From Escherichia coli (lineage in GTDB: Bacteria > Pseudomonadota > Gammaproteobacteria > Enterobacterales > Enterobacteriaceae), in assembly GCF_044324875.1 (NCBI RefSeq), contig NZ_CP172185.1: 64,000 nucleotides of DNA. One strand, given 5' to 3'. The position numbers are program-made. How positions within the stretch are numbered: position 1 is the stretch's first letter; the number at the start of each line of letters is the position of its first letter. Below are positions 39,301 to 42,300 of this stretch, in pieces.

Positions 39301-42300
39301 CAGTAAAAACTTTGCTTATCTCAATGATTCATTATGTGCAATTGATGAAGACAATAAAGATGCCACTGTTTATCAGTCAGGTCTGTATAACGTCATTGTT
39401 TATCATCACACAGGAAAAGTCGCCTTAATGAAGGAAGGTCAATTTGTGGGTTATTTAAAATGAAGGAGCAAAGGAAAATACCCCTGACGCATATTATGAT
39501 TATCGGTGCGTTTATTTTTGCCTTCTTGCAAGTAGTATTATTAGCCTCCCTGGTTCACGCTGTGAATGTTAACAACGAAATCCAGGAAGGCTTATTTCAG
39601 TCGGGGCGCATTATGGTAGAAAGTTTGCAGCATATTCTTTCGGTGCAAACGGGGATTAACTGATTTTCACCCCGCCCGATGATGACAGCAGCCGGAGAGA
39701 TTTTCGATAATCGGGCAGTCGGCGCTGTCATCGCCAGGGCAGGCATTCGCCAGCGCCAACAGCTGGTTGCGCATGGATTGCAGTTCTTCGATATGTCGCT
39801 CGATCTCCGCCACTTTCTCCAGGGTGCGACGTTTGACGTCGGCACTGTGACGCTGCGGATCGTTAAACAGATTCACCAGCTCGCCGCTCTCTTCCAGGTT
39901 AAAGCCCACCTGGCGTGCCTGGCGCAGTAAGGTCAGTTCGTTGAGATGCTGCTGCGTGTAGGTTCGATAACCATTTTCGCTGCGCATCGGCGGCGTCACC
40001 AGCCCCTTCTCTTCATAGAAGCGAATGGCTTTGCTGGTCAGGCCGGTAATTTTTGCTACATCGCTAATGTTCATCGTTCGCGCAACGCCTCCTGTGCTTT
40101 GTTAAAGGGTTTCAACAGATAATCCAGCACGCTTTTTTTGCCGGTGCGGATATCGACCGTCGCCACCATACCGGGGAATATCGGAAACTGCTGTTTGCTT
40201 TTATTTTCCAGATGGTTGCTGAAAGTGCGAATGTACACCCGATAGTAATAAACATCGCGCCGCACTTCATCCTGCACGGTGTCTGGTGATATCACCGCCA
40301 CTTCTCCCGGCAGGCCGCCGTAGATGGAGTAATCGTAGGCGGTTATTTTCACCAGCGATTTTTGCCCCGGATGGATAAACGCCACATCGCGCGGGGAGAT
40401 TTTTGCCTCGATCAGCAGTTGCTCATCCAGCGGCACGATGGTCATCAGTTTACCACCGGGGGCAATAACGCCGCCAACCGTGGTGACGTCAATGTCCTGA
40501 ACAATGCCACGTACCGGCGCGGTAAAGTTGAGCCGGGTGAGAGAATCTTCCCGCCCGCGGATCACCGAACGCTGGGTTTCCACTTCCGCATTGGCTTTCG
40601 CTAACTCTTCGCGCGCCTGAACGTAATATTGCGTGCGCACGTCGCTAAGTTTGTTTTCCAGTTCATTGGCCTGGCGTTGCAGGCGCAGCACTTCGACGCT
40701 GCTCGCCGCCCCCTGTTTCACCAGCGGCTGGGTCATCGCCAGTTCGCGGTTGACCAGGCTAATCCCCTGCGTCAGCCCGGTGGTGGCTTTGTTCAGCCCA
40801 TCGCGGCGAGTGTTGTACAACGCCGTTTCCGACTCGATAAGTTCGGGGAATTTATTCAGTTCGTCAGGGAAGACCAGCGGTTTATTACTCACTTCCGCCC
40901 GCAGCCGCGCCGAGGTTGCCAGCGCCGCGTACAGCCGCGACATTGCTTCCTGGACGTCGGATTCCGTTTTGGTGCGGTTAAGCTGCGCCAGCGGCTGGCC
41001 CTGTTCAACAATATCGCCAACCTTGACGTCGAGATGATACAGAATTCCGCCTTCCAGCGACTGCACCACCTGTTCGCGCCCGGAAGGTTCTACCGTGCCG
41101 CTGCCGGTGGTGACTTCATCAAGCTGGAAGTACCACGCCCAGCCGAGAAAACAGAGCAGCATCACAGCGGTAACGCGTACCGCCAGCGCCGAACGCGGCA
41201 GGCGGGGTTCAGTCAGGCCACGGTTGTATTGCAGTTGTCCATTCATGCGGCAGACCCCTTATTCTTCTCCTGCAACACCACCCGTCGCGTCGTGGGTTCG
41301 CCCTGTTCACGCAAAATGGCCTCTTTCGCGCCATCCATCACAATCCGCCCCTGATCCATCACGATAATGCGGTCCACCAGTTGCAGCATCGCCGTGCGGT
41401 GAGTGGCGATGACCAGCGTGCGATGCCCAATCCACTGTTTCAGTTGTTCGATTAAATACGCTTCCGCCATTTCGTCCAGCGAGGCGCTGGGTTCATCGAG
41501 CAGCACGATATTGGGTTGAGAGATGAGCAGCCGCGCCAGCAGCAGCGTTTGCCGCTGACCACCAGAGAGGCCAAATCCCCCTTCCTGAATCATGTAGTTG
41601 AGGCCGTTTTTCTGCTTCTGCACAAACGGCAGCGCCCCGCTGAGGGTTAACGCGCGTTCGATATCTTCATCGCTGGCTTCCGGCATCCCCATCGTCAGGT
41701 TTTCCCGCAGCGAACCGAAAAAGAGTCTCCCGGTCTGGCTCAGCAGCCCCATGTCGCGGCGCAGATCCGCCGGATCAAGCTGACCGATGCTGATGTTATC
41801 CAGCAGCACCTGCCCCTGCTGGGCGATACGCATTCCGGCGAGCATTTGCAGTAGCGTTGATTTACCCGCGCCGTTGCGCCCAAGAATGGCGATTTTCTCT
41901 CCGGCCTGAATGTTGAGTTTGCCAATCGCCACATCGGCAATTTTCTCTTCTTCGTCGTAATAAAAGATAGCGTTGCTGAACTGATAATTGCCGTGTAGCA
42001 CCGCTTTATGCACCAGTTTGCCGTGCTCCGGCTGATCCACCGGGCGCTTCATCAGTTCATCAAGTCCGTTGCGCGCCACTTTCGCCTGCTGCCAGCGCGA
42101 GAGCACGCCGGATATCTGCGACAGCGGCGCGATGGTGCGCGAAGCCAGGATCGTCGTCCCGACCAGCGCGCCGGTAGTCATGTCACCGTTCATTACCATA
42201 AAGCAGCCCACCAACAGCACCACCACGTAGACGATGGATTGCACTTCCTGCGTCCAGGTGAGCAGTAGCCCGGTGAGAAAACGTTGCTTCATGCTGATGG

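Follow-up and report, generated by a model that had tools for sequence, protein, structure and literature searches.

The overlapping stop and start codons of hlyD28 and cueR at the right-hand junction of O-island 28 in Escherichia coli

The 4-nt ATGA overlap between a type I secretion adaptor gene and the copper regulator gene cueR is the right-hand junction of Escherichia coli O-island 28 (OI-28), which carries tolC28, a giant adhesin, hlyB28, and hlyD28. It was analyzed in a 64,000-nt stretch of E. coli DNA (contig NZ_CP172185.1), referred to here as the window. Taken together as one scenario, a fusion at the OI-28 junction, transcription of cueR from a promoter (P1) inside hlyD28, and a later deletion in K-12 form what we consider the likely history of this locus. 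As a feature, the junction is already known: it is the annotated edge of a described island, and the start of cueR transcription is in a public transcription start site (TSS) table. Mild novelty lies in the reconstruction, in which hlyD28 would have been fused codon-exactly to cueR in an Escherichia ancestor, the cueR promoter would have been replaced twice, and the stretch upstream of cueR in K-12 would be the relic of a secretion gene. No description of this succession of cueR promoters was found in the cited literature.

Gene layout at the junction

The first-pass annotation had claimed that an adhesin gene, an ABC transporter gene, the adaptor gene, and cueR are co-directional and tightly packed, and the ORF coordinates confirm this, with a 3-nt gap between the adhesin and ABC genes, a 4-nt ATGA overlap between the ABC and adaptor genes, and another between the adaptor gene and cueR. 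All four genes lie on the minus strand, a detail that the annotation did not give. The features of this stretch are as follows.

39667..40074, minus strand: cueR, Cu(I)-responsive MerR-family regulator, 135 aa (NCBIfam NF007590; the same CDS is annotated in RefSeq for matching genomes)
40071..40074, minus strand: ATGA stop/start overlap, with the adaptor TGA at 40073..40071 and the cueR ATG at 40074..40072 (sequence read and rechecked)
40071..41246, minus strand: hlyD28, HlyD-family type I secretion adaptor, 391 aa (TIGR01843; identity to O157 by tblastn)
41243..43405, minus strand: hlyB28, type I secretion ABC permease/ATPase of the LssB type (TIGR03375; 833.5 bits, cutoff 693.1)
43409..63940, minus strand: giant adhesin with Ig-like repeats, 6,843 aa in a single ORF (ORF list), corresponding to siiEA or to rtxA28/rtxB28 of OI-28

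Read directly, the plus strand at 40068..40077 is aatgTTCATcgttcg / TGTTCATCGT; its minus-strand reading is CGATGAAC, in which the cueR ATG overlaps ...CGA TGA. The window contains further ATGA overlaps, at the ABC/adaptor, qmcA/ybbJ, and ybbA/ybbP gene pairs, and by itself the overlap between the adaptor gene and cueR is statistically unremarkable. ATGA is also present at the junction in O157, K_EC180, Escherichia whittamii, and Escherichia sp. E1V33 and, in relic form, in K-12.

Both partners of the overlap are well defined. CueR scored 308 bits against the NF007590 equivalog (cutoff, 244), aligning at full length (positions 1 to 135 of 135), and 206.6 bits against TIGR02044 (cutoff, 147.4). 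Its translation from the window contains Cys112 and Cys120, which we take to be the metal-binding residues of E. coli CueR. The first two codons of cueR are ATG-AAY in 4/4 orthologues examined and GTG-AAT in Enterobacter; because these codons are ATG-AAY, the TGA is intrinsic to the cueR start. The adaptor scored 327.7 bits against TIGR01843 (cutoff, 208.65), with its best stretch, residues 185 to 391, aligned to positions 217 to 422 of 422. That the overlap might be an annotation or ORF-calling artifact, with the real cueR start or adaptor stop elsewhere, is conceivable in that ORF lists are mechanical; we consider it scarcely credible, since cueR aligns from residue 1 both to the equivalog profile and to orthologues starting at the homologous ATG or GTG, and since the adaptor aligns to the final position of its profile and to the final residue of 75 relatives. 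One match (H5) was considered as an IS element in the junction and ruled out; it is an additional gene downstream of cueR.

Identity and distribution of the island

The adaptor-cueR stretch was found whole by megablast in 959 of 5,426 complete E. coli genomes, O157:H7 included. The RefSeq gene order in matching genomes is ybaT, a TolC-family gene, the adhesin, the type I secretion system (T1SS) permease/ATPase, the HlyD-family adaptor, and cueR, with the adhesin named either "BapA-related adhesin SiiEA" or "Ig-like domain-containing protein." As in OI-28, the adhesin, ABC, and adaptor genes of the window stand in this order directly upstream of cueR; the tolC28/ybaT side was seen in O157 and lies outside the window. 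It had been remarked earlier that ybaT is missing from the window, which is correct, but the absence is merely positional: ybaT sits past the island in O157, and it falls outside the window because the 25-kb island pushes it past position 64000.

In EDL933, the genes of OI-28 are tolC28/z0608, rtxA28/z0609, rtxB28/z0615, hlyB28/z0634, and hlyD28/z0635 (Niu et al. 2025, PMC12758282). The island has been described as an RstA-activated, Ca2+-responsive T1SS/adhesin system whose five genes respond jointly to RstA (PMC12758282), in a study that mentions neither cueR nor the overlap. The adaptor gene of the window corresponds to the gene named there hlyD28 (z0635; PMC12758282), and its protein is identical by tblastn to O157 WP_001014327.1.

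Relatives of the adaptor were collected from one genome per species, giving 80 loci. Among these species-level loci, cueR lies downstream of the adaptor gene only in those of Escherichia (E. coli, E. whittamii, and Escherichia sp. E1V33, the Escherichia species sampled). In the remaining loci, with adaptor identities of at most 73%, no cueR was found within 5 kb. The 75 non-Escherichia relatives align to the adaptor's final residue, and the C terminus ...EALRER is present in 72 of them; the end of the adaptor ORF coincides with this conserved C terminus of the family. The ending of the adaptor ORF exactly at the family C terminus is the non-trivial aspect of the overlap. The stop codons of the 75 relatives are TAA in 49, TAG in 17, and TGA in 9.

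Ancestral copA/cueR arrangement

The copA and cueR genes diverge from each other, 98 to 170 nt apart, in Klebsiella, Enterobacter, Pseudescherichia, and a fourth lineage, and cueR there converges with ybbJ. The copA/cueR layout of Salmonella is likewise divergent (PMC1526738). The end of the copA/cueR intergenic region in the outgroups reads ...ACCTTCCAGCAAGGGGAAGGTCAAG GGGGGAAAT ATG(cueR). In the E. coli copA-glsA spacer, homology is kept through ...GGTCAAG, right after the CueR operator, and is then lost, and on the cueR side the homology to the outgroups resumes exactly at the cueR ATG. Because the homology stops after the operator and resumes at the ATG, we infer that the native promoter and ribosome-binding site were lost to cueR: in an Escherichia ancestor, a block consisting of glsA, ybaT, and OI-28 would have replaced about 9 nt, comprising the native cueR ribosome-binding site, and would have parted cueR from its native promoter. 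The proposal that the island had inserted at the 5' end of cueR and replaced its native promoter is supported for this ancestor, given the breakpoints relative to other genera, but not relative to K-12.

The adaptor gene relic in K-12-type genomes

In genomes lacking the island, the megablast match starts at query position 1131, equivalent to window position ~40170 and ~96 nt inside the adaptor gene. The piece that survives is the following.

40075..40172, minus strand: adaptor 3' end surviving in K-12-type genomes as a frameshifted relic (boundary ± ~8 nt; megablast, PGAP, and alignments)

In the K-12-type strain OV2, PGAP annotates a 98-nt pseudogene at 513677 to 513774 ("frameshifted, missing N-terminus") that overlaps cueR by 4 nt. 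Alignment showed the relic to be the 3' coding end of the adaptor gene with a 1-nt deletion and a few substitutions, retaining the C-terminal codons conserved in the family and the TGA. The last ~60 nt upstream of the cueR ATG, together with the ATGA, are 100% identical between K-12 and the window. The first-pass annotation had implied a contrast with K-12 and had named beforehand the presence of the same overlap in K-12 as evidence against it; as the relic carries this ATGA, the contrast has to be given up.

A single deletion junction is common to 4,463 of the 5,426 genomes, at 98 to 100% identity, and the intact gene is present in ~960; among these complete E. coli genomes, the K-12 relic allele was found in no island-bearing one. 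The left endpoint of the deletion lies just after ybaT, inside the hairpin GCGCAGTAC-tgcct-GTACTGCGC, which is followed by a T-rich tail. O157 has this ybaT terminator hairpin, a perfect stem of 9 bp, in full, and K-12 has a truncated form.

Because K-12 retains the ATGA and the final ~98 nt of hlyD28, its arrangement is a secondary deletion; K-12 is a deletion derivative and not the native state. In the opposite model, implicit in the first-pass annotation, the ybaT-cueR arrangement of K-12 is native and some lineages acquired the island by insertion exactly at the cueR start, which agrees with the absence of the island from 82% of complete genomes and with its classification as an "O-island" absent from K-12 (PMC12758282). 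This model is very improbable in our estimation, given that ~98 nt in K-12-type genomes align to the adaptor 3' coding end, TGA included, with a 1-nt frameshift; that the left junction cuts the ybaT terminator hairpin that is intact in O157; that 4,463/4,463 island-less genomes have one junction; and that the 98-nt stretch is not present as a cueR leader in the outgroup genera.

Promoters reaching cueR

A simple sigma-70 position weight matrix (PWM) was run on the 600 nt upstream of cueR before the TSS data were seen. Its best candidates were TTGGCG-19-(TG)TAAACT and ATGAAG-17-TACTAT, whose -10 elements end 372 and 167 nt upstream of the ATG, respectively. A strict sigma-70 scan of the minus strand upstream of cueR found no promoter; the looser PWM alone gave candidates. 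The TSS data are Cappable-seq data from EDL933, a strain other than that of the window, under eight conditions (PMC10469882, Table S5). In EDL933, cueR is gene 2800 (604847 to 605254) and has a gTSS at 604687, position -160, in 8/8 conditions, with relative read scores (RRS) of 4.2 to 9.0 (PMC10469882). Between -45 and +10 relative to this start, the window and O157 have the same sequence, which places the TSS at 40234 of the window. The two promoters inside the adaptor gene are located as follows.

40234..40270, minus strand: P1, cueR promoter inside the adaptor gene, with its TSS at 40234, -10 element TACTAT at 40242..40247, and weak -35 element ATGAAG at 40265..40270
40439..40477, minus strand: P2, weaker second internal promoter, with its TSS at 40439/40440, 365/366 nt upstream of cueR (mapped from EDL933)

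The starts of P2 are the EDL933 internal TSSs 604481/604482 in gene 2795, the adaptor gene, at -365/-366 (PMC10469882). Its elements are a -10 TAAACT at 40447..40452 with TG upstream and a -35 TTGGCG at 40472..40477, and it received the top PWM score (10.2); in this region the window differs from O157 at 2 nt, in the spacer. Both the P1 and the P2 starts lie 7 nt downstream of the -10 element predicted by the PWM. Conservation of the P1 element extends to all Escherichia copies that were aligned. The -35 element of P1 is poor, and the read scores of this promoter are only moderate.

The first-pass annotation had named, as evidence against its suggestion, an intact canonical cueR promoter with its own start within the last ~100 bp of the adaptor gene and a lack of read-through transcripts. 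The start site inside that gene (in EDL933, with the window identical) comes close to this, although at -160 it lies beyond the range named. The TACTAT of P1 consists of the Tyr-Tyr codons of the conserved motif DVYYYRVYIRT and is found at the same place in 27/79 homologues; because it encodes a family motif and recurs at that place, the -10 element was probably a latent promoter element that came with the island and did not evolve for cueR.

The gTSS of tolC28 in EDL933, at 579751, had RRS of 0 to 4 in exponential phase and 9 to 65 (maximum, 64.7) in stationary phase (PMC10469882), and the island's own promoter, which precedes tolC28, acts mainly in stationary phase. Because cueR has its own TSS 160 nt upstream in all eight EDL933 conditions, it does not depend on the adhesin operon for its transcription.

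In K-12, P1 and P2 are deleted, since both lie upstream of the relic boundary at ~40172. The TSS assigned to cueR in K-12 is 512925, position -292, which falls within ybaT at a distance of 167 nt from its stop codon (Kim et al. 2012, PMC3415461), and an internal ybaT TSS of EDL933, at 579390, has the same relative position (PMC10469882). The deletion, which also destroyed the ybaT terminator, would thus have linked cueR to this pre-existing ybaT promoter. RegulonDB 10.5, as quoted in PMC10469882, places the K-12 cueR TSS at -19, a position reproduced neither by the data of Kim et al. (2012) nor by those from EDL933.

A promoter born in the K-12 relic was also considered. The PWM gave TTCGCA-17-TTGAAT, preceded by TG and ending 46 nt before the ATG, which arises from K-12-specific differences. 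This candidate was ruled out, as its predicted start near -39 agrees with neither recorded K-12 TSS (-292 or -19), and as five of the seven substitutions fall at third codon positions (binomial p ~0.045). Because of this codon-position bias, the K-12 relic substitutions suggest divergence while the gene was still coding.

Read-through and translational coupling

The first-pass annotation had raised the possibility that cueR is partly co-transcribed or translationally coupled with the secretion genes. The layout fits an operon with coupling: the genes are on the same strand, the stop and start codons overlap by 4 nt, and a scan of the minus strand found no terminator-like site between hlyD28 and cueR, so read-through from the island operon is plausible when the operon is induced. 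The lack of its own promoter, which would be expected of a dependent downstream gene, does not apply to cueR, given the start at -160. Co-transcription or coupling is therefore not required for cueR expression, and the part of the suggestion that stands is that read-through may occur. The share of read-through in cueR mRNA is not a quantity that Cappable-seq TSS data provide.

For translation, the following element lies within the last codons of the adaptor gene.

40088..40093, minus strand: AGGAGG, putative Shine-Dalgarno-like element of cueR, in adaptor codons Q-E-A, 13 nt before the ATG

Relatives of the adaptor mostly have K-E-A (AAAGAGGCG) at this position. The 13-nt spacing from AGGAGG to the ATG is above the optimum and leaves room for a contribution of translational coupling. 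The 5' untranslated region (UTR) starting at P1 has no special structure (z = +0.75), and in its centroid fold the ribosome-binding site and AUG are unpaired. CueR of K-12 is functional without an intact, translatable adaptor gene upstream.

These observations bear on a stronger reading, in which cueR functions as the terminal gene of the adhesin/T1SS operon, its mRNA coming mostly from the tolC28 promoter (RstA, Ca2+, and stationary phase) and its translation from reinitiation at the hlyD28 TGA. The spacing of the co-directional genes (3, -4, and -4 nt), the lack of a terminator-like match between hlyD28 and cueR, and the suboptimal distance of the Shine-Dalgarno-like element all accord with it, as do the joint RstA response of the five island genes (PMC12758282) and the presence, in a crude scan, of a hairpin and T-run after the adaptor gene in 33/75 of the non-Escherichia relatives. 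We nevertheless hold it to be improbable: the cueR start at -160 was detected in every condition, including exponential phase, when that of tolC28 is weak or missing; in K-12, cueR works although the sequence upstream does not encode a translatable adaptor; and the P1 5' UTR leaves the ribosome-binding site and AUG unpaired in the centroid fold. Transcription of cueR chiefly from P1 is the reading that we retain.

Proposed history of the locus

In the scenario that we favor, an Escherichia ancestor would have acquired the glsA-ybaT-OI-28 block, as a unit or in succession, in the interval separating the cueR start codon from the CueR operator/PcopA. By its last sense codon, hlyD28 would thereby have been joined to the cueR ATG, with the intrinsic ATG-A supplying the TGA stop, and the native cueR promoter and ribosome-binding site, judging from other genera, would have been removed. 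Strains with the island would since have transcribed cueR from the constitutive P1 inside hlyD28, as shown in EDL933 and extended to the window by sequence identity, and cueR would presumably be translated from the AGGAGG within the last codons of hlyD28. Read-through of the RstA/stationary-phase operon and termination-reinitiation at the ATGA may add to this expression but would not be needed for it. Most E. coli strains, K-12 included, would later have lost everything between a point within the hairpin of the ybaT terminator and a point ~98 nt short of the hlyD28 stop codon. After this deletion, K-12 would have retained the ATGA without P1, with cueR reached from the ybaT-internal promoter (TSS at -292).

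Implications

Our understanding of CueR or of type I secretion is unchanged by these findings, and their importance is modest. They correct a natural misreading, in that K-12 is not ancestral at this locus and the stretch upstream of its cueR is a secretion-gene relic. They also present a core regulator that outlasted two successive promoter replacements by means of borrowed intragenic promoters, both of which are in public TSS data. A deletion of OI-28 or hlyD28 such as those constructed in PMC12758282 necessarily takes away the mapped promoter of cueR and may, depending on where it ends, take away the ribosome-binding site of cueR as well. Because such deletions remove this promoter, the associated colonization phenotypes warrant a check of cueR expression and copper.

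A wider reading combines two cueR promoter changes, from the copA-divergent promoter to that formed by the Tyr-Tyr codons of hlyD28 and then to the ybaT-internal promoter, with a link of CueR dosage to RstA, Ca2+, or stationary-phase induction through OI-28 read-through or coupling. We offer it tentatively and regard it as rather unlikely. If it is true, the capacity to sense copper would increase as cells attach in the gut, and altered cueR expression would be a partial confounder of the published phenotypes of OI-28 or hlyD28 deletions.

Comparison with known systems

The closest counterpart of the window is OI-28 of O157:H7 EDL933, with which it shares the gene order, the ybaT-cueR site, the ATGA junction (97.3% identity of the junction DNA), and an identical adaptor protein. 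The two differ in the adhesin, which is an uninterrupted 6,843-aa ORF in the window, whereas in O157 it is interrupted by an internal stop and is counted as two genes. The ybaT-cueR region of K-12 has the same cueR and the same ATGA as the window but lacks ~25 kb, P1 and P2 included, reaching from within the ybaT terminator to a point ~98 nt short of the adaptor stop codon. Operon overlaps of the ATGA type, known for translational coupling by termination-reinitiation, have the same 4-nt geometry as the adaptor gene and cueR, and three others occur in the window; in contrast to such coupled operons, the adaptor gene and cueR have unrelated functions, and a promoter of its own has been mapped for cueR. 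In the ancestral divergon of Klebsiella, Enterobacter, and Pseudescherichia, cueR is orthologous to that of the window (84 to 90% identity), has a homologous start codon, and is likewise convergent with ybbJ. There, cueR begins 9 nt past the CueR operator/PcopA with the ribosome-binding site GGGGGA, whereas in Escherichia this position is taken by the coding sequence of the adaptor.

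Island deletion mutants and transcription around cueR

The lambda-Red ΔOI-28 and ΔhlyD28 mutants, which lack O-island 28 or its adaptor gene, are the basis for the adherence and colonization defects described by Niu et al., who complemented their single-gene mutants (PMC12758282). Both deletions must take out the mapped cueR promoter, and possibly the SD of cueR is lost as well (window positions 40071 to 40270). That paper makes no mention of cueR, including effects of the mutations on its expression.

An antisense start was found by EDL933 Cappable-seq in three stationary-phase conditions at position 605353 on the minus strand (approximately 39568, plus strand, in the window), 99 nt past the cueR stop. 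This start sits within a small convergent ORF and is directed into the cueR 3' end.

The ybaT side and the K-12 relic

Outside the window, at the island-bearing O157 locus (L004), ybaT is closely followed by its terminator, a hairpin with the sequence GCGCAGTAC-tgcct-GTACTGCGC and then CTTTGTCTTT. Directly 3' of this sequence is TAATTCAAATTACC, the RstA box published for the tolC28 regulatory region (PMC12758282). The K-12 deletion starts within the right arm of the hairpin. A sigma-54 ChIP-seq site, IS02 (CTGGCACTGGTTTTGCT), has been reported within ybaT in the sense direction, with cueR given as the downstream gene (PMC4591121); at the island-less K-12-type locus (L001), this site is 679 nt upstream of cueR.

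The hlyD28 remnant upstream of cueR in K-12 (L001 positions 5972 to 6095) differs from window positions 40075 to 40172 by the changes ATT, ACT, CTT, GAA, and others. Among the complete E. coli genomes searched, this allele was confined to island-less genomes and was found in no island-bearing genome. Because alignment with the adaptor gene places the majority of the differences at third codon positions, the sequence suggests that the relic derived from a diverged adaptor allele, the intact form of which would be gone among those genomes.

Comparison with K-12 and O157

The ybbJ and cueR stops adjoin in K-12, where a stretch of approximately 3.4 kb is missing, whereas in the window they are separated by this stretch (36257 to 39666), which contains the following features:

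36442 to 36804, minus strand, 120-aa ORF
37570 to 38955, plus strand, YadA-family autotransporter (461 aa)
39041 to 39463, plus strand, lipoprotein-like gene
directly downstream of cueR, ORF of approximately 67 aa

The stretch varies independently of OI-28 and is present in some genomes without the island; strain ABW_A19 has an additional 407-aa gene directly after cueR. The autotransporter is 338 aa long in O157 and K_EC180. The giant adhesin (43409 to 63940, minus strand) is a single unbroken 6,843-aa ORF in the window. In O157 the adhesin has an internal stop; PGAP annotates it as a pseudogene, and it was handled as two genes, rtxA28 and rtxB28, by Niu et al. (PMC12758282).
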